NCBI GenBank assembly: GCA_017626145.1
Contig: JAGAJK010000077.1
Location: 125,077 to 189,076, forward strand
Reading direction: 5' to 3'
Length of the DNA stretch: 64,000 nt
From: Clostridia bacterium
Lineage (GTDB): Bacteria; Bacillota; Clostridia; RGIG6154
This document shows, piece by piece, positions 10,864 to 62,660 of this stretch (within the stretch, counting starts at the first letter, position 1; every line of letters starts with the position of its first letter). Made by a program: the position numbers and the translations under genes. The notes under the pieces were generated by a model. The model was given only the letters and a program-made list of their open reading frames with translations. It searched no databases and was not told the DNA's origin.

Positions 10864-10891
10864 AAAAAGCATTGCAGAGCAATGCTTTTTT
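10864..10891. terminator. bidirectional intrinsic terminator at the 3' end of the ABC exporter operon
   Basis: AAGCATTGC-aga-GCAATGCTT flanked by an A-run and a T-run. Confidence 0.75.
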
Positions 10892-16651: not shown

Positions 16652-17677
16652 ATGAAAATAGATTTAAATAAAATCAAAGAAATAACAAAAGGTGCTGTAA
16701 GAATTACAGAAGAAAACAATGGTGTTCATTTTTACAGATTTACAAAAGAGCAGGAAGAAATGTATAAAGAGTTTTCTGATAAACACCTTGCAGATTTTTA
16801 CAAAAAATCCTTTGCAACTGCCGGCGTGAAGCTATTATTTAAAACTAACAGTAAAACGTTGAATCTGAAAGGTCATTTGTTCTCTGGTTCATCAAGATTT
16901 TATTATTCGATTGATATTTTTATTAATGGTATATTTTTTGATTGTATTAAAAATTTTGATGAAAGTGTTCTTCCTGATAATTATTCCGCAGAACCCTTTC
17001 CGGTCGATAGATTTTCCAAAAGCTTTGAAATAGGCGAGGGTGATAAAACAGTGTGTATATACTTGCCGTGGAGTATGTGTACTGTGTTAGACGAATTATC
17101 ACTTGATGACTGTTCGTTTATTAAGCCGATTAAAACGAATGAAAAATTGCTTGTCTTCGGTGACTCTATTACACAGGGGTATGACTCTTTGTATCCGTCA
17201 AACAGATATGCCTGCAAGCTTGCCGAAATGATTGGTGCAGAAGAAATTAACAAAGGTATAGGTGGAGAAATGTTTCGTCCGGACCTGGCAAAAATTAAAG
17301 AAGATTTTGAACCCGATTATATAACCGTAGCTTATGGTACTAACGATTGGAGCAGCAGAAATAAAGATGAATTTGTTTCAAACTGTAATAATTTTTTTGA
17401 TGCGCTTTATGAAAATTATCCAAAATCAAAAATATTTGCAATTTCACCTGTGTGGAGAAAAGATTGGGAGTCAAACGAAAAATTCTGCAAGTTCTCTGAG
17501 ATTGAAGAATATATGAAAAAGGTGACTGAAAACCTCGATAACGTAACAGTGATTTCCGGTTTTGAATTTGTTCCTCATGAAGAAGCGTGTTATGGTGATT
17601 TATGGTTACATCCAAATGATAAAGGCTTTGAGCATTATACTCAAAACCTTTATGAGAAAATTAAAAAATTTTTATAA
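16652..17677 (+). CDS. SGNH/GDSL-family hydrolase with an N-terminal extra domain of about 170 aa
   Basis: C-terminal block I GDSITQG, block III GTND and block V DLWLHPNDKGFEHY. I chose the start at MKIDLNK, 8 nt after an AAGGA RBS. The track ORF starts at 16514. Confidence 0.75.
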   Translation: MKIDLNKIKEITKGAVRITEENNGVHFYRFTKEQEEMYKEFSDKHLADFYKKSFATAGVKLLFKTNSKTLNLKGHLFSGSSRFYYSIDIFINGIFFDCIKNFDESVLPDNYSAEPFPVDRFSKSFEIGEGDKTVCIYLPWSMCTVLDELSLDDCSFIKPIKTNEKLLVFGDSITQGYDSLYPSNRYACKLAEMIGAEEINKGIGGEMFRPDLAKIKEDFEPDYITVAYGTNDWSSRNKDEFVSNCNNFFDALYENYPKSKIFAISPVWRKDWESNEKFCKFSEIEEYMKKVTENLDNVTVISGFEFVPHEEACYGDLWLHPNDKGFEHYTQNLYEKIKKFL

Positions 17678-18538
17678 TATGCTTTTGGTGTAAGCTGTGG
17701 GAGACATTCCTACAGCTTTCTTAAATGCACGTGAGAAATTATGTATTGAAGAATATCCCAGCATATCAGAAATCTGACTTATCGAATAATTTTTTTCGCG
17801 TAAAAGCTTTTTCGCTTCTTCATTTTTAAGAGCCGTAAAATAATCCATAGGACTTTGGGATAATGATTCCTTGAATATTTTACATAATTGTGTTTTGCCA
17901 ATAGAAAAATTTGAACATAATTCTTTTATGGAAAGATTAGAATTAACGTTTCTTTTCATATATTCACACATAATTTCACACATGGAATTTTTCACATCGT
18001 TTCTTGATTGTTTTTCGGTTAAATTTGCAAGAGTATTACCACTTCTTATAAGTTTAATAAGGAATTCAGTAAAATGACAGTTTAACAGTTGAACGGAGCC
18101 AAACTGTGCTTTTGAAAAATCAAGAGGCAGATGATTTTGGTAATCATTCGGTATATCTCCCAATGCATTTTTTGCTTCTTGGAGAAATAGCTTAAGAATC
18201 GTCTTTGAGTTTTTATCAAGTGTAAAAGTTTTTCCTTTAAAATATTCCATTGCGTTTCCATAAGCCGAAAACGAAACCACAAGCATATTATTTGCGACTC
18301 TTTTATCTGAGATATGGGAATGTGTTTCCATAGGTTGATGGAAAATAGCCTGCCCCTGGGAAAGGGGATAAACAACGTCGTTGGCAATTGCGTTTACGTT
18401 TCCGTTGTCAACATAAACCATTTCCCAATAATTGTGGCTTTCTGGTTCATGGAAAAAATCCTTGCTGAATTCAAAGTAATAAATGTTGTTGAAATTTTCT
18501 ATAAATATTTCGTTTTCTTTTTTAGATAATAGTTCCAT
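17672..18538 (-). CDS. AraC-family transcriptional regulator (cupin plus HTH)
   Basis: C-terminal dual HTH (SIKELCSNFSIGKTQLCKIFKE...ISQISDMLGYSSIHNFSRAFKKAVGMSPTAYTKS). I chose the start at MELLSK, which has an AAGGTGG RBS. Its stop overlaps the SGNH stop within TTATAA. Confidence 0.85.
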   Translation of the reverse strand: MELLSKKENEIFIENFNNIYYFEFSKDFFHEPESHNYWEMVYVDNGNVNAIANDVVYPLSQGQAIFHQPMETHSHISDKRVANNMLVVSFSAYGNAMEYFKGKTFTLDKNSKTILKLFLQEAKNALGDIPNDYQNHLPLDFSKAQFGSVQLLNCHFTEFLIKLIRSGNTLANLTEKQSRNDVKNSMCEIMCEYMKRNVNSNLSIKELCSNFSIGKTQLCKIFKESLSQSPMDYFTALKNEEAKKLLREKNYSISQISDMLGYSSIHNFSRAFKKAVGMSPTAYTKSIL

Positions 18539-20332: not shown

Positions 20333-20375
20333 AAAGTGACATACCCGACTGGATCGGCGTATGTCACTTTTTTAT
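20333..20375. terminator. bidirectional intrinsic terminator between the aldolase and melA
   Basis: AAAGTGACATAC-ccgactggatcggc-GTATGTCACTTT followed by TTTT. Confidence 0.8.
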
Positions 20376-20376
20376 G

Positions 20377-21693
20377 TTAAAGTATTTTGAAACCTGCATT
20401 TTCGTGAGCTTCAAACATTTCATCACACATAGCAACAATGTCGTCTATTGAAAGAACTGCTGCTGTATGGGGATCAAGCATCGCTGCGTGGTAAATGTGT
20501 TCCTTTTTACCTGTTACCGCTGCTTCAATTGTAAGAAGCTGTGGATTTATGTTTGTTATATTTATAGCTGCAAGCTGTGGTGGGAGAGCACCAACATATG
20601 TAGGAAGTATTCCGTTTGCATCAACCATACAAGGTACTTCAACGCAAGCATCAGCGGGAAGGTTTGTAATAAGACCGTTGTTAATTACGTTACCGCCGAT
20701 TTTGTACGGAACATTTGTAACCATAGCTTCAACAATACGTGATGCGTATTCGTGGCTTCTTGTGTGTTCAATATCGCCGCCGTTTAACAACTCTTCACGC
20801 TGTTTACCCCAGTTGTCAATCTGTCTTATACAACGTCTGATATATTCATCAATAGGAATGTTGAATTTGTCAATTAATTCAGGATAGTTAGGCTTAATAA
20901 AGAATGGATTGTATTCGGCGTTGTGTTCACTTGATTCTGTGCAGTAATAACCAAGATGCTTGATATATTCAAATCTTACCATATCGCCATGCTTTTCGTT
21001 TGCATTCTTTTCAGCGGCTCTTTTCTTGATTTCGGGATACAAATCGTTACCCTTTGCATCTTTAATTTCAAGAAGCCATGCCATGTGGTTGATACCTGCG
21101 ATTTTGTCAACAAAGCCGTCAACTTGTATATCAAGAGATTTTAAAAGATTTTCGGAGCAAACCTGAACGCTGTGACAAAGACCTATGGTTTTAACATTTG
21201 TGTATCTCTGCATATAACCGGAAATAATTGCCATAGGATTTGTGTAGTTAAGAAGCCATGCATTCGGGCAAACCTCTTCCATATCTCTTGCGATGTCTTT
21301 CATAACATAAATAGTTCTTAAGCCTCTGAAAATACCACCTATTCCGAGGGTGTCTGCAATAGTTTGCTTAAGACCGTATTTTTTAGGAATTTCAAAGTCA
21401 ATAACTGTACAAGGCTCGTATCCGCCAACCTGAATTGCGTTAATAACAAAGTCAGCATCCTTTAAAGCTTCTTTTCTGTTTTCTACACCAACGTAGCACT
21501 TGATTTTTGCTCTGTTTTCATTGTATTTTTTGTTAATAGCTTCAACGATAAGACGTGAATCTTCAACTCTTTGAGCATCAATGTCATATAATGCAATATC
21601 AACGTCGTGTGTTGCATCTGCAAACATAATATCACCAAGTACGTTTTTACAGAAAATAGTACTTCCTGCACCAATAAATGTAACCTTAATCAT
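20377..21693 (-). CDS. melA: GH4 alpha-galactosidase (NAD/Mn-dependent)
   Basis: Near-colinear with Bacillus MelA. Motifs include MIKVTFIGAGSTIF.KNVLGD (Rossmann), NAIQVGGY, TIGLCHSVQ (the catalytic Cys-His region) and the C-terminal AAMLDPHTAA. Confidence 0.9.
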   Translation of the reverse strand: MIKVTFIGAGSTIFCKNVLGDIMFADATHDVDIALYDIDAQRVEDSRLIVEAINKKYNENRAKIKCYVGVENRKEALKDADFVINAIQVGGYEPCTVIDFEIPKKYGLKQTIADTLGIGGIFRGLRTIYVMKDIARDMEEVCPNAWLLNYTNPMAIISGYMQRYTNVKTIGLCHSVQVCSENLLKSLDIQVDGFVDKIAGINHMAWLLEIKDAKGNDLYPEIKKRAAEKNANEKHGDMVRFEYIKHLGYYCTESSEHNAEYNPFFIKPNYPELIDKFNIPIDEYIRRCIRQIDNWGKQREELLNGGDIEHTRSHEYASRIVEAMVTNVPYKIGGNVINNGLITNLPADACVEVPCMVDANGILPTYVGALPPQLAAINITNINPQLLTIEAAVTGKKEHIYHAAMLDPHTAAVLSIDDIVAMCDEMFEAHENAGFKIL

Positions 21694-21803: not shown

Positions 21804-22568
21804 ATGCAGGAAGCGTTTATTTTTGAAGACAGAAAGTTTAAAGATATTAACCCTATTCATGTAGGTCACGAAGCTTGTGCACCAAAACATAGCTTTGGTC
21901 CGGCTATCAGAATAAATTATCTTATTCACTATGTGTTGTCGGGAGAAGGTGTTTTATATGCGCCAAATGGAGAATTCAAGGTGAAGGAAGGACAGCTTTT
22001 TCTTATAAAACCAGGTGAAATTAATACATATACAGCCGATGAAAAAAAACCATGGGATTATATATGGATAGAATTTAACGGTGAAGTTGCAAATAAACTT
22101 TCACATATTGATAATCCTGTTATAGAATGCGACAGGAATATTTTTACTAATTTATGGAACTTGAGAACTAAAAAAGAATTTGCTGAAGAATATGCCGCTT
22201 CCTACATATTTTCGCTTATTCCTGTATTGCTGGGAAAAGATGTCGAAAAAGATATATCAGGACGAATTGTAAATTACATACACTCTAATTATATGAGAAA
22301 TATAAGTGTTGAGGAATTATCAAAAAGTATGGGGTACAGCCGTCAGCATATCTCACGAGTGTTTAAAAACGACATTGGTTGCCCGATACAGCAATATTTA
22401 ATTAAAACAAGACTTTCAAATGCAAAAACACTTCTTTCTAAAGGCTTTACAGTTTATGAAACTGCATTTATGTGTGGATATAATGATTCATTCAACTTTT
22501 CCAAAAGTTTTAAAGAAGAATACAAAATAAGCCCTAAACAATGGCAAAGCAAAAAGGATGTCAATTGA
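21804..22568 (+). CDS. AraC-family transcriptional regulator (cupin plus HTH), divergent from melA
   Basis: N-terminal cupin (HYVLSGEGVLYAPNGEFKVKEGQLFLIKPGE) and C-terminal HTH (VEELSKSMGYSRQHISRVFKNDIGCPIQQYL...TAFMCGYNDSFNFSKSFKEEY). Upstream promoter is TTGAAA, 17-nt spacer, TGTTATAAT. Confidence 0.85.
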   Translation: MQEAFIFEDRKFKDINPIHVGHEACAPKHSFGPAIRINYLIHYVLSGEGVLYAPNGEFKVKEGQLFLIKPGEINTYTADEKKPWDYIWIEFNGEVANKLSHIDNPVIECDRNIFTNLWNLRTKKEFAEEYAASYIFSLIPVLLGKDVEKDISGRIVNYIHSNYMRNISVEELSKSMGYSRQHISRVFKNDIGCPIQQYLIKTRLSNAKTLLSKGFTVYETAFMCGYNDSFNFSKSFKEEYKISPKQWQSKKDVN

Positions 22569-22578
22569 CATCCTTTTT
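22551..22578. terminator. bidirectional terminator hairpin formed by a perfect 18-bp palindrome that contains both convergent stop codons
   Basis: AAAAA-GGATGTCAATTGACATCC-TTTTT. The AraC stop TGA is at 22566-22568 and the esterase stop is at 22561-22563 on the minus strand. Confidence 0.6.
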
Positions 22579-23325
22579 CAGACTATCTATGTAGTTGTAA
22601 ACAATTTCACCAAATACGGGGATATTATTTTCGTTGATCTTTCTTACATATTCGCAGTGTTTACCATGCATCACTATATGGTTGATTTTAGGTTCAGTAT
22701 GTCCGAAATGTTTTAATGTGGAAATCATAAGCATAGTTTGTTCATATCTGTTTTCCATATCGTTATCTGAAACTATAAAAAGCATATCAGGATATGTATC
22801 ACTTGTGCCTATATGATAAAGAGGAGCAGAGGAATCAATGATAACTCTTTTTTTGTCAATTCCTCTTTCTCTTAAAACATTAAAATGACACGTAGGTTGT
22901 CCTGCATCGTGAATAAATGCTTTAATATCCATTGGAGATATTTTATAAGGAGCAAGAAATCTGCTGTCGAAACACAGCATCATCGACAGATACCCACCAG
23001 CCGAACTGCCGCCCACATAAATATCTGTGCAGTTACCGTAATTTGAAATGTTATTTTTAATCCAGGCTACAGATTCAGCAGCATCCATTATAAACTCTGG
23101 ATAAATAGCCTGAGGGTACATTCTGTAATTTACAGATGCAATAGCTATACCTTTATCTGCAAGGTAGGGTGCAAAGGCTTCTGCAGACTGTTTGTCTCCT
23201 TTTTCTATACCACCACCGTGAAAATAAACAAATATAGGAAAATTATCTGATTTTGGTAAATATAAATCAAGTTTCTTATCAATATTATCATATTTACTGT
23301 ACGAAATATCTTTAATTATTTTCAT
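22561..23325 (-). CDS. alpha/beta-hydrolase-fold esterase (BD-FAE / acetyl-esterase-like)
   Basis: Oxyanion HGGG motif (VYFHGGGIEKGDK) and nucleophile elbow G-x-S-x-G (YVGGSSAGGYLSMML). Confidence 0.8.
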   Translation of the reverse strand: MKIIKDISYSKYDNIDKKLDLYLPKSDNFPIFVYFHGGGIEKGDKQSAEAFAPYLADKGIAIASVNYRMYPQAIYPEFIMDAAESVAWIKNNISNYGNCTDIYVGGSSAGGYLSMMLCFDSRFLAPYKISPMDIKAFIHDAGQPTCHFNVLRERGIDKKRVIIDSSAPLYHIGTSDTYPDMLFIVSDNDMENRYEQTMLMISTLKHFGHTEPKINHIVMHGKHCEYVRKINENNIPVFGEIVYNYIDSLKKDVN

Positions 23326-23328
23326 AGC

Positions 23329-23607
23329 TTACTCCTTATCATAAACTGCTTTATTATAATAATAAGCAATAATGCAAGCACCTACCATAATTAAGTTGAT
23401 AACGTAGAATATCGATGGGAGAGTAAAGAATTTATTTCCTATGATTTTAGAGCCGATTCCTGCAATGTATCCGAAAAAGATAAGATAATAGAATGAAAGA
23501 CTTTTGCCTTTTGCAGTCTTTGATTTAACAGAATTGATTAAGTTCATAGGCCACGAAAGACCAAAACTGATAATCATAAGTGTTTCTAATATTTCCGGTA
23601 TTGACAT
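23329..23607 (-). CDS. small 3-TM PQ-loop-like membrane protein (SemiSWEET / LAB_N-like)
   Basis: 92 aa with 3 TM helices. TM1 motif LSWPMNLINSVKSKTAKGKSLSF resembles the PQ-loop signature (S..PQ....K.K....S). I chose the ATG start, which has an AAAGGA RBS. The track ORF has a TTG start at 23625. Lies 3 nt upstream of the esterase. Confidence 0.45.
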   Translation of the reverse strand: MSIPEILETLMIISFGLSWPMNLINSVKSKTAKGKSLSFYYLIFFGYIAGIGSKIIGNKFFTLPSIFYVINLIMVGACIIAYYYNKAVYDKE

Positions 23608-23741
23608 AATAAAACATCCTTTCAATAAATTATTACAGATATATTAACATAAAAAGCTCATAATGTAAATAATTAAATATAGTAACCCACTATACGTTGA
23701 CAGTTATGCTGAAACATGTTAAGATTAACATGGTGATTACA

Positions 23742-24587
23742 ATGGAACTATTACAATTAAAATATTTCTGTCATGCAGCAGAAACACAGAATTTTTCAAA
23801 AACAGCAAAAGAGTTTGAGGTCCCGGCTTCCAATATATCTCAAATGATTCACCGACTCGAGAAAGAACTTGAGACAACGCTTTTTGACAGAAGTGCAAAT
23901 CGTGTGCAGCTTAATGAAAAAGGAACCGCGTTTTACAAAAAAGTAAAGGAAGCATTAATATGTCTTGATGAAGCACAACGTATAGCACTTGATCATAATG
24001 AGACCGGTGGAGAAATACACCTTCGTATATGTACTAACCGTCGTCTTATAACTGATGTTATAGGTCAGTTTCGTAAACTTTTTCCAAAAGTAACATTTGT
24101 ACTTAATTTTGATAACAGCTCTGATAACAGCTTAGATGATTTCGATTTATTAATAAGTGAAGACGTTGATGATTCCAATCTGGAGAAAATCAAACTCATC
24201 GATGAAAAAATACTTCTTGCAGTAGAAAACAAACAAAGCAAATATGTTAACAAAAAAGATTTCAGTAATTTGAAATTTATTACTATGAGTAAAGGTAGCA
24301 GTATACATAAAATAACACGTAATATTTGTAATTTACAAGGATTTGAACCTAACATAGTAATACAAAGCGATGATCCGTTTTATCTCAGGAAATATGTCTC
24401 GTTAGGACTTGGTGTAGCCTTTTTCCCTGAAAAGTCCTGGAAGGGTCAGTTTGCAGACAATGTAAAGCTTATGGATGTAACAGATTTTAAGAGATCAACG
24501 TATGTTTTCAGACATAAAAACAGATATATGACAAAACCGCTTAAAGCTTTTCTTGAAATGCTTATCATCGGGGCTAAAAAATATTAA
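23742..24587 (+). CDS. LysR-family transcriptional regulator, divergent from the PQ-loop/esterase operon
   Basis: HTH directly at the N-terminus (MELLQLKYFCHAAETQNFSKTAKEFEVPASNISQMIHRLEKEL). The track ORF starts 15 codons earlier. Confidence 0.85.
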   Translation: MELLQLKYFCHAAETQNFSKTAKEFEVPASNISQMIHRLEKELETTLFDRSANRVQLNEKGTAFYKKVKEALICLDEAQRIALDHNETGGEIHLRICTNRRLITDVIGQFRKLFPKVTFVLNFDNSSDNSLDDFDLLISEDVDDSNLEKIKLIDEKILLAVENKQSKYVNKKDFSNLKFITMSKGSSIHKITRNICNLQGFEPNIVIQSDDPFYLRKYVSLGLGVAFFPEKSWKGQFADNVKLMDVTDFKRSTYVFRHKNRYMTKPLKAFLEMLIIGAKKY

Positions 24588-34125: not shown

Positions 34126-34184
34126 ATTAAAAGTTGTTTTGCTATATAGCGAAACAACTTTTTTATAAGTAAAACAGAAATTAT

Positions 34185-35698: not shown

Positions 35699-36619
35699 AT
35701 GAAAAATACAGGAATTGTAATTTTGTGTTGCATTTTTGTTGTTGCAATAATACCAATGATCAATGTTAAAACGATTATATCTCAAGAAAATTCAATAAAA
35801 ATGATAAGTGTATACAATACAATAGAATCGAAAACTGAAACAATGAATATTGAAGAATATGTTTTAAAGGTTCTTGAAGAGGAAATGCCGGCATCTTATG
35901 AAATGGAAGCACTCAAAGCTCAGGCAATCGCTATAAGAACATATGCGCTAAGAAAAATGGATTCCGATGCTGAAAATCACTTTGGTGCCGATGTTTGCAC
36001 AGATTACAAGCATTGTATGGCTTATATGTTTAATCCAACTGAAAAGTGGGGAGATAAAGCAAATGAATATATATATAAATATCAAAGAGCAGTTGATGAA
36101 ACCGCTGGAATGATTTTAACTTATAATAATGAACTTGCGGCTACTTTTTTCTTTTCTTTATCTGCCGGGAAAACTCAGAATTGTTATGATGTTTGGGGAA
36201 AAGATATTCCGTATTTAAGAAGTGTTGATAGTAAGGTAGATAAACTAAGAAAAAATTATGAAACATTTTTAGAATTTAGTGATATAGAATTAAATAAAAA
36301 ATTAGGAATTAATTTAGAAGAAAATTTTTATATAGAACATTTTGAAAATGGCTATGTGAAAAATCTGATATCGGGCGATGACAAACTTTCAGGAACTGAA
36401 GTAAGAGAGAAGCTTGATTTGAGATCTTCTGCATTTCAAATAGAAAAAAAAGACACAAAATATAAATTTACTGTTTATGGTTATGGTCATGGGGTTGGTA
36501 TGAGCCAGCAAGGCGCTGATGAAATGGCAAAGCAAGGGAGTAATTATCAAGAGATACTTTATCACTATTACAACGGAACTACTATTAATAATTTTAATTA
36601 TAAAAAGCCGGGCAATTAG
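35699..36619 (+). CDS. spoIID: SpoIID/LytB-domain protein (stage II sporulation protein D-like)
   Basis: N-terminal TM helix and the SpoIID signature LKAQAIAIRTYALRK...FFFSLSAGKT. Confidence 0.85.
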   Translation: MKNTGIVILCCIFVVAIIPMINVKTIISQENSIKMISVYNTIESKTETMNIEEYVLKVLEEEMPASYEMEALKAQAIAIRTYALRKMDSDAENHFGADVCTDYKHCMAYMFNPTEKWGDKANEYIYKYQRAVDETAGMILTYNNELAATFFFSLSAGKTQNCYDVWGKDIPYLRSVDSKVDKLRKNYETFLEFSDIELNKKLGINLEENFYIEHFENGYVKNLISGDDKLSGTEVREKLDLRSSAFQIEKKDTKYKFTVYGYGHGVGMSQQGADEMAKQGSNYQEILYHYYNGTTINNFNYKKPGN

Positions 36620-36630
36620 CCCGGCTTAAA
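36602..36630. terminator. bidirectional terminator shared by spoIID and the SLH gene
   Basis: AAGCCGGGC-aatta-GCCCGGCTT with flanking A and T runs. The spoIID stop codon lies in the loop. Confidence 0.8.
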
Positions 36631-44427: not shown

Positions 44428-44459
44428 AAATCCCAAGGAATTTTTCTTGGGATTTTTTA
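44428..44459 (+). terminator. intrinsic terminator after tRNA-Gly
   Basis: AAATCCCAAG-gaattttt-CTTGGGATTT followed by TTT. Confidence 0.8.
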
Positions 44460-44485: not shown

Positions 44486-46312
44486 ATGAAAATAAAAAAT
44501 AAAAAACTAAGTTATAAGATGTTAAATAGTTTTTTGCTTACTGTAAGTATGTTGGTTTTTCTGGTTTCTTTTATGTTTGAATCTCCTGTAAGCTCATGGG
44601 TGATTTTATCAGGAATAATAATAAACTGTATTGCAGTTATTCTTCGCATTATGCTTCAGTATACAAAGATGAAGTCTGTAATTTTTGAAGTTACAACTAT
44701 TTTAATTTCTATATATATGTTTTCTTTTGGATATGTTTATCAGGCATATTGGGTAGGTTTGATATCAGTTATATTTTCTTATATAAATCATTCTAATCTG
44801 TTTATTAAACCATTGTTAAATGAAACCTTTTCTAAAATATGCTCTTGTACTTACAGAAGATATTTTAACAGTGATACCGAATTTGTGAATGTTTCTGAAA
44901 TACGTGTTGGAGATTTTCTGCAATTATTTTCCGGTGAAACCGTTCCATGTGATGGTATTGTTAAGGCGGGGTCCGGAACAGTTAACGCAACTTGTGTAAC
45001 CGGAGATAACCGAATATTAAATATAAATAAGGGAGACAAAATTTTTGCCGGATTCACTGTTTTAAGTGGAAAGCTCATAGTTGAATCGACTAATACTGTT
45101 CTTGAAAGCAGCCTTAGTAAAACAATACATTGTGTTATGGATATAAATAAAACAAAAACACCGAAAGAGAAAAAGATATCCGCAATTAGTGTAGTTGTTT
45201 CTTTGGTTTTGTTTGCTGTGTTAGCTATTTTTATACTTGTTTCAGGGATCAGTTCAGAAAACTATGTTTTCATAGCACACTCTTTGCCTCTTTGTCTTTT
45301 GTTTTCATTTGAAATTGCGGGAAGCGGTCTTATTAGTGATATTTATGAATCTGTTGCAGTAAATCTTGCATCTAAAGGTATTGTTGTAAAAAGCAAACAG
45401 TTTATCGAAAATACTCTTGAATTTGAAAATGTAGGGTTTTCAGTCAAAGGAGTTCTCGGTGGTAAAAAGCCATTAATTTCCAATGTGAAAAGTGAATTAA
45501 GCATAACCGAAGATGAGCTTATAAAGGTTGCTGCATACGCACTTTTCAGAACAGGTTCATCAATGGCAAAGGTTATTGTCGCAAAAAGTAATTCAGATAT
45601 CAATATAGCTGATATAAGAGATTTTAAACCGGTAGGTGAATATGGCGGATATGTTAAAATTTGTGGCGATGTTGAAGTTGTGGCAGGAAGTGTCGAAGAT
45701 CTGAATTCTTATGGGATAATTGTAGGACTCGATAATTCAGAAGATACAATTTATATAGGTGTTGATGGCAAATTTGCAGGATTTATACAGTTTGAAACTC
45801 CGTTAAATGAAGACATTTTTCAGTGTATGAATAATTTGAGGTTTGCCGGTATTAAGAATATATTTGTATATTCTCATTGTAATTCAGAAATTGCAAATCA
45901 GATATCTAAAGTGGGTAATCTCAAAGAAGTTAACGGTAACCTTAACGATGATCAGATAAGATATAGATTAAAACAGTTATCAGGCAATACTCTTATGTTC
46001 CGTTACGGAAGTAATTGTGCTGACTATAGTGAGTATGTCAATGAAATAGGCTTTGGAGGTTATGATGTGTTTGACAGGTATGATGCAGTTATTCTTACCG
46101 ACAATTTACTTTCGACCGTCAACTTTGTAAATGTACTAAAGGATGCTAAAGGCTTAATTTTAAAAAACATTTTGATTTCTGTTATAATAAAACTCATTCT
46201 TTTAATTATGTTAATTTTTAATGTTAAGTACGTGTGGCTTGCTGTTATTTTAATTGGAATTTCTTTGTTATTGATGCGTATAAATAATTTAAAATTCAGA
46301 TATAAACTATGA
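44486..46312 (+). CDS. degenerate P1B-type P-type ATPase homolog (all catalytic motifs substituted); predicted non-catalytic membrane protein
   Basis: Four N-terminal TM helices. Actuator-like domain (EIRVGDFLQLFSGETVPCDGIVKAGSGTVNATCVTGDN) with TGDN in place of TGES. TM region with SFE where the CPC metal site would be. GFSVKGVLGGKKP in place of FDKTGTLT. No HP motif. SHCN where TGDN would be. GSNCAD where GDGxND would be. Two C-terminal TM helices. Own RBS. Confidence 0.7.
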   Translation: MKIKNKKLSYKMLNSFLLTVSMLVFLVSFMFESPVSSWVILSGIIINCIAVILRIMLQYTKMKSVIFEVTTILISIYMFSFGYVYQAYWVGLISVIFSYINHSNLFIKPLLNETFSKICSCTYRRYFNSDTEFVNVSEIRVGDFLQLFSGETVPCDGIVKAGSGTVNATCVTGDNRILNINKGDKIFAGFTVLSGKLIVESTNTVLESSLSKTIHCVMDINKTKTPKEKKISAISVVVSLVLFAVLAIFILVSGISSENYVFIAHSLPLCLLFSFEIAGSGLISDIYESVAVNLASKGIVVKSKQFIENTLEFENVGFSVKGVLGGKKPLISNVKSELSITEDELIKVAAYALFRTGSSMAKVIVAKSNSDINIADIRDFKPVGEYGGYVKICGDVEVVAGSVEDLNSYGIIVGLDNSEDTIYIGVDGKFAGFIQFETPLNEDIFQCMNNLRFAGIKNIFVYSHCNSEIANQISKVGNLKEVNGNLNDDQIRYRLKQLSGNTLMFRYGSNCADYSEYVNEIGFGGYDVFDRYDAVILTDNLLSTVNFVNVLKDAKGLILKNILISVIIKLILLIMLIFNVKYVWLAVILIGISLLLMRINNLKFRYKL

Positions 46313-62624: not shown

Positions 62625-62660
62625 AAAACCTCTGAAGTTGAAAGACTTCAGAGGCTTTTT
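62625..62660. terminator. bidirectional intrinsic terminator
   Basis: CCTCTGAAGT-tgaaag-ACTTCAGAGG followed by CTTTTT. Confidence 0.85.

Follow-up and report, generated by a model that had tools for sequence, protein, structure and literature searches.

How can two convergent genes each keep a transcription terminator when no intergenic space is left between them? The question is raised by a 64-kb stretch of DNA (the window, 34% G+C) from an uncultured Clostridia lineage, contig JAGAJK010000077.1, in which an AraC-family regulator's open reading frame (ORF) on the plus strand and that of an alpha/beta-hydrolase of the esterase type on the minus strand overlap at their 3' ends inside a perfect palindrome. 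It is likely, judging from the sequence, that this palindrome is a bidirectional Rho-independent terminator common to the two convergent transcription units.

A palindrome at two gene ends

The region in which the two genes end reads CAAAAAGGATGTCAATTGACATCCTTTTTC in the window, and the order of the letters from 22550 to 22579 is C-AAAAA-GGATGTC-AATT-GACATCC-TTTTT-C. The elements that bear on its function are the following.

21798 (GTG) or 21804 (ATG) to 22568, plus strand: AraC-family regulator gene (AraC_binding and HTH_18), divergent from a GH4 alpha-galactosidase gene
22561 to 23325, minus strand: alpha/beta-hydrolase gene (BD-FAE / Abhydrolase_3 esterase), the last of a two-gene operon
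22561-22568, both strands: overlap of the two ORFs, TCAATTGA, 8 bp, containing both TGA stops, phase 1:1, 2:3, 3:2
22556-22573, both strands: core palindrome of 18 bp, GGATGTCAATTGACATCC
22551-22578, both strands: perfect palindrome of 28 bp, AAAAAGGATGTCAATTGACATCCTTTTT, made up of A5, the 18-bp core and T5 (repeat finder)
22556-22562 and 22567-22573, with the loop AAUU at 22563-22566: stem of the core hairpin GGAUGUC/GACAUCC, the same RNA from both strands
22574-22581, plus strand: U-tract UUUUUCAG of the plus transcript, starting at the first base past the stem
22545-22555, minus strand: U-tract UUUUUGCUUUG of the minus transcript, starting at the first base past the stem and encoding the AraC residues ...S-K-K on the plus strand

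The two arms of the palindrome, 22551-22564 and 22565-22578, were returned by the repeat finder with 14 nt each, 100% complementarity and a spacer of 0. No perfect palindrome in the window is longer, the runners-up having arms of 9 nt, and arms of 14 nt were reached in none of 200 dinucleotide-preserving shuffles, in which the maximum of 12 occurred once. The 18-mer is present in a single copy in the 64 kb when up to 3 mismatches are allowed. An identical junction is found in independent ENA, Logan and NCBI assemblies, and the esterase is carried by 14 contigs, three of which were retrieved (L001-L003) and are 100% identical to the window. An assembly artefact was considered and rejected, as independent assemblers and samples yield the same junction. 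The k-mers used in assembly are usually longer than 28 bp.

RNA transcribed from either strand would fold as GGAUGUC-AAUU-GACAUCC and run directly into UUUUU, with the A-tract of one strand acting as the template for the U-tract of the other. The stem is composed of 7 bp, four of which are G-C pairs, and closes a loop of 4 nt; the core fold has an energy of -9.4 kcal/mol, which falls inside the span of -7.6 to -27 kcal/mol covered by the other terminator candidates of the window. Pairing between the A-tract and the U-tract lengthens the stem to 12 bp and lowers the energy to -14.7 kcal/mol on the plus strand and -15.3 kcal/mol on the minus strand (z = -5.4 and -7.2, respectively, against shuffles). 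Five U directly follow the stem on each strand and are mirrored by the A-tract, and the hairpin is positioned at the 3' ends of two convergent units, araC on the plus strand and, on the minus strand, an operon of the esterase gene and a gene for a 98-residue protein, with a gap of -8 bp between them. The structural features of an intrinsic terminator are all present, namely a G+C-containing stem (~5-14 bp), a loop of 3-8 nt, an adjoining U-tract and a position at a gene end, and so are those of a bidirectional one, an A-tract that mirrors the U-tract and convergent neighbours. No match for the hairpin was found in Rfam. The hairpin is predicted to end a monocistronic regulator transcript on the plus strand and a two-gene operon on the minus strand. 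From canonical terminator anatomy the 3' end of the AraC mRNA would lie at ~22579-22582, and that of the operon mRNA is expected at ~22547-22550.

Both ORFs are genuine genes by their domain matches (AraC_binding and HTH_18 in one, BD-FAE/Abhydrolase_3 in the other). The plus-strand ORF ends in ...PKQWQSKKDVN-TGA and the minus-strand ORF in ...NYIDSLKKDVN-TGA, with stops at 22566-22568 and at the complement of 22561-22563, respectively, each TGA taking its T from the end of the loop and its GA from the start of the 3' arm. On its way to the stop each ORF would read AAA-AAG from the A-tract, GAU-GUC from the 5' arm and AAU from the loop, with UGA spanning the loop and the 3' arm. Since both ORFs enter the perfect palindrome in the same phase they acquire an identical peptide, KKDVN, and an identical stop codon. 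The shared KKDVN is a by-product of palindrome geometry and not a functional motif. A stop (AAA AAG GAT GTC AAT TGA) is encountered in a single reading phase of the palindrome, and an ORF in either of the other two would continue for tens of codons antisense to the partner gene. The phase of the overlap is the commonest one among convergent overlaps of at least 5 nt (PMC2174442). Recoding of TGA was considered and rejected, as homologues finish at the corresponding position and TGA is the stop of 12 of the window's 56 called ORFs. No database record was found for the 256-residue AraC product that starts at the GTG; gene callers choose the ATG at 21804, which gives 254 residues.

The price paid in protein sequence can be judged from homologues. 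The HTH_18 match stops at residue 251 of the 256-residue AraC protein, and 44 aligned AraC homologues differ freely in what follows the conserved ...SP..W/Y, both in its length and in its sequence, the nearest relatives ending in QKEKGKS and QKEKGL. Among the 60 closest of 120 aligned esterase homologues most chains finish 3-12 residues before the end of the window protein, and an esterase with 83% identity ends in ...NYISGK, leaving the window tail the longer one. To judge from these alignments, the KKDVN tails lie beyond the conserved domains and are dispensable, and the coding cost of the hairpin is small.

The initial annotation of this DNA had seen much of the above. Its coordinates, 22548-22581, contain the whole feature; its exact 18-bp palindrome with AAAAA and TTTTT flanks is correct and merely understates a symmetry of 28 bp; the common KKDVN end with both stops in the palindrome centre is true, both TGAs lying within TCAATTGA; and its proposal of a bidirectional terminator is supported by every feature looked for at the level of the sequence. 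It had also stated that the terminator structure constrains two coding sequences at once, and here the hairpin does code for both proteins but the constraint was overstated, as the five shared codons are tails outside the conserved folds. It is more likely that the ORFs simply extend into the hairpin as far as its first in-frame stop.

Predicted terminator hairpins at gene ends in the window and in relatives

The window was scanned for an A-run, a perfect stem of at least 6 bp, a loop of 3-8 nt and a T-run, against 60 shuffles, and a second scan that allowed imperfect stems gave ~17 candidates. The first scan returned nine sites, compared with a shuffle mean of 0.05 and a shuffle maximum of 1, which is an excess of ~180-fold. 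None of the other eight sites lies inside a long ORF and six of them stand just past a gene 3' end (3225, 8113, 10869, 46322, 55303 and 62629). In this genome the A-run/stem/T-run class is a real one associated with gene ends, and the palindrome at 22556-22573 is the sole member from the first scan that lies wholly within confidently called coding sequence, on both strands. The same design occurs within the gaps of other convergent junctions, at 20336-20367, 34133-34158, 10869-10885 and 62629-62654, of which 20336 and 34133 were added by the imperfect-stem scan.

Short distances between stop and stem recur in the window. They amount to 7, 7, 8, 9, 9 and 10 nt in six of the ~17 candidates, and about 8 of the 17 begin at most 10 nt after a stop or overlap it (-13, -13, 7, 7, 8, 9, 9, 10), a sample far too small for a genome-wide statement. 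One further gene, encoding a SpoIID-like protein (35699-36619, plus strand), ends in ...KKPGN-TAG with the TAG at the junction of the loop and the 3' arm of a hairpin at 36605-36627. This hairpin is G+C-rich (AAGCCGGGC-AATTA-GCCCGGCTT), carries a U-tract on the minus strand only and is predicted to serve as the terminator of a convergent SLH-domain gene.

Two other places in the window are recorded in their own right. At 17672-17677 a convergent GDSL lipase-type gene (plus strand) and a gene for an AraC-family regulator (minus strand) overlap by 6 bp, the second such pair in the window, with both TAA stops within the palindrome TTATAA; a terminator-like hairpin of the GDSL gene, 17694-17716, falls in the coding sequence of the AraC-family regulator. 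At 44431-44452 an A-run/hairpin/T-run structure, UCCCAAGGAAUUUUUCUUGGGA followed by UUUUUU, is situated in a divergent intergenic region just upstream of a gene starting at 44486, and could be a leader terminator or attenuator and not a gene-end terminator.

Metagenome and genome scans with the AraC alignment yielded 10 loci, none of which contains the araC/esterase junction, and no direct orthologue of the palindrome was found outside the species. The 28-mer is absent from every related locus outside the species and present in L001-L003, which are duplicates of the window. The nearest relatives, L004, L005 and L007, are 90-92% identical in melA, 87-89% in mutS, 79-87% in the 98-residue protein and 68-69% in AraC. 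Their gene order is melA-araC-98aa-mutS, without the esterase and without lysR. In comparison with L004 and L007, the AraC regulator diverges much faster than the flanking melA and mutS.

The 3' ends of these relatives are shaped in a similar manner with other letters. In L005 and L007, where AraC is 68% identical and the flanking melA and mutS are 87-91% identical, a different hairpin, AGGUCUGUAAA...UUUACAGACCU with an energy of -14 to -16 kcal/mol, arises from the same AAAAAGG at the 3' end of araC. Its 5' arm contains the araC TAA, and codons of araC supply the U-tract of the opposite strand, UUUUUCUUUUUG. In L004 the hairpin is a separate, intergenic one. In L006, which carries the 83%-identical esterase, the stop is located in an A-run directly before a bidirectional hairpin of -27.9 kcal/mol. 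In L019-L021, from another organism with an esterase of 63% identity, a convergent EamA gene overlaps the esterase gene by 11 bp (L020 3237-3266). The L020 overlap lies inside a hairpin with an A-run and a T-run at its sides, AAAAACAGCUUAC-UGA-GUAAGCUGUUUUUU, and the esterase ends in ...QKQLTE* and EamA in ...KKQLTQ*; this junction is an independent second instance of the architecture, with another hairpin and another partner. LysR stop codons are found in hairpin loops at L020 1190-1216 and L017 1501-1540. At L020 1190-1216 the A-tract of the hairpin also holds the stop of a convergent aldo/keto-reductase gene, with only 9 bp between the two genes. In L014 (2707-2723) an AraC homologue of 51% identity appears to overlap a convergent putative ORF of 158 residues by 17 bp, without a hairpin.

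As different hairpin sequences share the same shape and position, selection would act on the RNA structure and not on a DNA recognition sequence. The initial annotation had asked whether the palindrome and the shared peptide are conserved in orthologous loci, and had counted ORF ends that differ there against itself. Both palindrome and tails do differ in relatives, and the palindrome is lineage-specific; formally this goes against the proposal, but terminator function is not thereby contradicted. The case is not unusual in this genome group: several further ORFs, some of them in the window and some in related loci, stop inside hairpins.

Mechanism and competing explanations

It is proposed that the intergenic space has shrunk to -8 bp, whereby both ORFs would have come to extend into the hairpin. 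Between their stops and the RNA 3' ends expected downstream there would be 11-14 nt, leaving both ORFs complete in the terminated transcripts. Co-transcriptional folding of the hairpin would need the leading ribosome to be far behind RNA polymerase, a state referred to as runaway, or uncoupled, transcription. As 13 nt of each ORF are still to come where the stem starts, the arrangement would be workable only with the leading ribosome well behind the polymerase. There is precedent for runaway transcription in B. subtilis, in which the overlap of a large fraction of terminators with coding sequences has been ascribed to it (Johnson et al. 2020, as cited in PMC8237595 and PMC7858274), and many other bacteria have been suggested to share it. 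The six further candidates of the window with stems 7-10 nt past a stop, although a small sample, are consistent with the runaway picture. We infer that termination does take place in both directions and that transcription and translation are uncoupled in this uncultured Clostridia lineage.

Several points weigh against this proposal. The first is the position of the stem, which begins before each ORF has ended and does not stand clear of the terminating ribosome. In E. coli, terminators less than ~27 nt from a stop codon are repressed by the trailing ribosome; a terminator a few bp past the stop is almost fully repressed and efficiency becomes maximal at ~27 nt (PMC4824070). This repression arises as the terminating ribosome covers the 5' arm, and uncoupling translation from transcription removes it (PMC4824070). 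Secondly, terminators rarely overlap stops in Clostridioides difficile, which has been studied better than any other member of the class, and runaway transcription was not considered a determining feature there (PMC8237595). Thirdly, the stem has few base pairs and a moderate G+C content, and no more than 5 nt make up the U-tract. A generic promoter and terminator scan of the window did not list the site, most likely because greedy stem extension consumed the T-run; TransTermHP has an explicit rule for a T-run taken up as stem in bidirectional terminators (PMC1852404). Lastly, the junction copies at hand (L001-L003) are all 100% identical, leaving no within-species variation by which selection on pairing or compensatory change could be tested.

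The explanation that survives best beside the terminator, although it is unlikely, is a non-functional relic or mutational product, in which the symmetry would stem from template switching in replication (quasi-palindrome correction) or from an indel that placed or removed the esterase, was tolerated in dispensable tails, and has left termination to happen elsewhere or through Rho. Template switching is able to create and perfect hairpins (PMC8794818, PMC7202029), and the 4-nt loop is itself self-complementary, which a terminator does not need; a palindromic loop of 4 nt is, however, expected by chance in ~8% of AT-rich hairpins, as estimated from base composition. The lineage-specific palindrome and the varying presence of the esterase and LysR among close relatives would fit a recent rearrangement of the junction, but no rearrangement scar could be traced in the L007 spacer. 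An alignment column match (CTTTTTCAGAC / CTTTTACAGACC) had the look of an esterase remnant there, but in an unconstrained local alignment of this spacer against the esterase region the best matches fell elsewhere and were not significant. A maintained function is favoured by the A5 and T5 flanks, by a placement that coincides exactly with both gene ends and by another hairpin at this point of araC in relatives, and a mutational origin is in any case compatible with a function as terminator.

Less probable still is a translation-sensitive terminator. Here a ribosome finishing either ORF would melt the hairpin, termination efficiency would track the distance of the ribosome behind RNA polymerase, and read-through would carry each transcript antisense into the partner gene, whereby the regulator and the esterase operon would interfere with each other through transcription or antisense RNA. 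The start of the stem 13 nt before the ORF ends places it inside the ~10-27 nt zone of ribosome repression in E. coli, and terminator read-through makes antisense RNA (PMC4824070). The partner gene moreover has no strong backup terminator on either strand, only a weak candidate at 22829-22865 (plus strand). Nothing, on the other hand, links alpha-galactosidase control to the esterase operon, and the partner gene varies in relatives (the small protein in L004, L005 and L007; EamA in L020), giving the pairing an opportunistic look. The many window terminators at 7-10 nt from stops suggest that masking by ribosomes is generally no problem in this organism. A site acting at the level of DNA, be it an operator for a dimeric AraC or LysR regulator, the end of a recombination or mobile element or a restriction-type palindrome around CAATTG, is very improbable, for although a spacerless perfect dyad is a usual trait of sites bound by proteins and the genes of two regulators are close by, the palindrome stands at the 3' ends of both genes and more than 700 bp from either promoter region, its single copy in 64 kb at up to 3 mismatches excludes a REP, MITE or IS end, the sequence is absent from related loci, which carry unrelated hairpins of the same shape, and Rfam returned no match.

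Gene neighbourhood and comparison with known systems

The genes around the terminator proposed here are arranged in the order fba(+), GH4 alpha-galactosidase(-), araC(+), esterase(-), 98-residue membrane protein(-), lysR(+), mutS(+), mutL(+), and three of them complete the list of features.

20377 to 21693, minus strand: GH4 alpha-galactosidase gene (NF011657, 634 bits), divergent from araC
23329 to 23625, minus strand: gene for a predicted membrane protein of 98 residues, 3 nt upstream of the esterase gene and first in the operon
23697 to 24587, plus strand: LysR-family regulator gene, divergent from the 98-aa/esterase operon

The GH4 alpha-galactosidase gene is the probable target of the AraC regulator; the melA/araC pairing is kept in eight related loci (L004, L005, L007, L009, L011, L013, L014 and L016). 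The 98-residue protein has no Pfam family match (best E-value 0.017). Its pairing with the esterase is kept in L019/L020, while its gene occurs alone in L004, L005 and L007. LysR is, from conserved adjacency, the probable regulator of the 98-aa/esterase operon. The complete LysR/98-aa/esterase module is also found in L019/L020, and LysR with the esterase in L017. The conservation of this trio in the distant organism of L019/L020 suggests a functional module, and given its presence there the balance leans towards loss of the esterase and LysR in the L004/L005/L007 lineage rather than a gain in the window.

Candidate absorbed terminators have been encountered at 22556 and 36605 in the window, in L005/L007, in L017 and at two L020 junctions, with both ORFs entering the hairpin at window 22556 and at the L020 esterase/EamA junction. 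It may be, although we regard this as doubtful, that bidirectional terminators are routinely absorbed into convergent ORF ends in these small AT-rich uncultured Clostridia, producing mirror-image tails where both ORFs enter. Were this to hold genome-wide, such sites would provide a marker of transcription uncoupled from translation that can be read from sequence alone, and terminator hairpins would be a small but recurrent source of new C-terminal peptides. Together with the other cases the locus hints that the lineage tolerates stops inside terminator hairpins, which is expected only if ribosomes lag and contrasts with the report on C. difficile. It shows how closely two convergent genes can be packed, here with a gap of -8 bp, while the predicted terminator is kept. 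It is also a warning for annotation, as terminator finders that search intergenic regions only, or that greedily extend stems through A- and T-tracts, miss such sites.

The literature consulted yielded no paper describing this exact configuration of one shared hairpin centred on the overlap, with the stops within it and identical tails; each of its components has a counterpart. Transcription is stopped on either strand by hairpins with A-tracts (PMC4824070; Ju et al. 2019, as cited in PMC8237595). One symmetric A-tract/stem-loop/T-tract likewise serves both strands in the bidirectional terminators that stand between convergent genes (Ju, Li & Liu 2019, as cited in PMC8237595; PMC4824070; PMC1852404), ordinary examples in the window being those at 10869, 20336, 34133 and 62629. 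Unlike these, the palindrome described here leaves no intergenic space, its whole signal including the A- and U-tracts is coding on both strands, and both stops lie inside it. The terminators of B. subtilis that overlap coding sequences also have stems before or a few nt after the stop but, as far as the citing papers describe them, concern one gene and its own terminator (Johnson, Lalanne, Peters & Li 2020, as cited in PMC8237595 and PMC7858274), whereas here two ORFs on opposite strands enter one hairpin. Convergent overlaps in E. coli likewise necessarily place terminators in coding sequence, that of the partner, with one terminator in 19 overlaps and two different terminators in 2 (Lillo & Krakauer 2007, PMC2174442); they differ from the single shared hairpin centred on the overlap, and from the identical C-terminal peptides, seen here. 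The arfA hairpins are also stem-loops in the ORF end of a tail-to-tail gene, but the arfA transcript, in the account given by PMC10070815, ends before the stop, giving a non-stop mRNA under tmRNA control (Garza-Sanchez 2011; Schaub 2012), whereas both TGAs of the present locus precede the U-tracts and the ORFs are complete. Overall, the locus is an extreme geometry of known parts, bidirectional terminators and terminators overlapping coding ends, and not a new mechanism.

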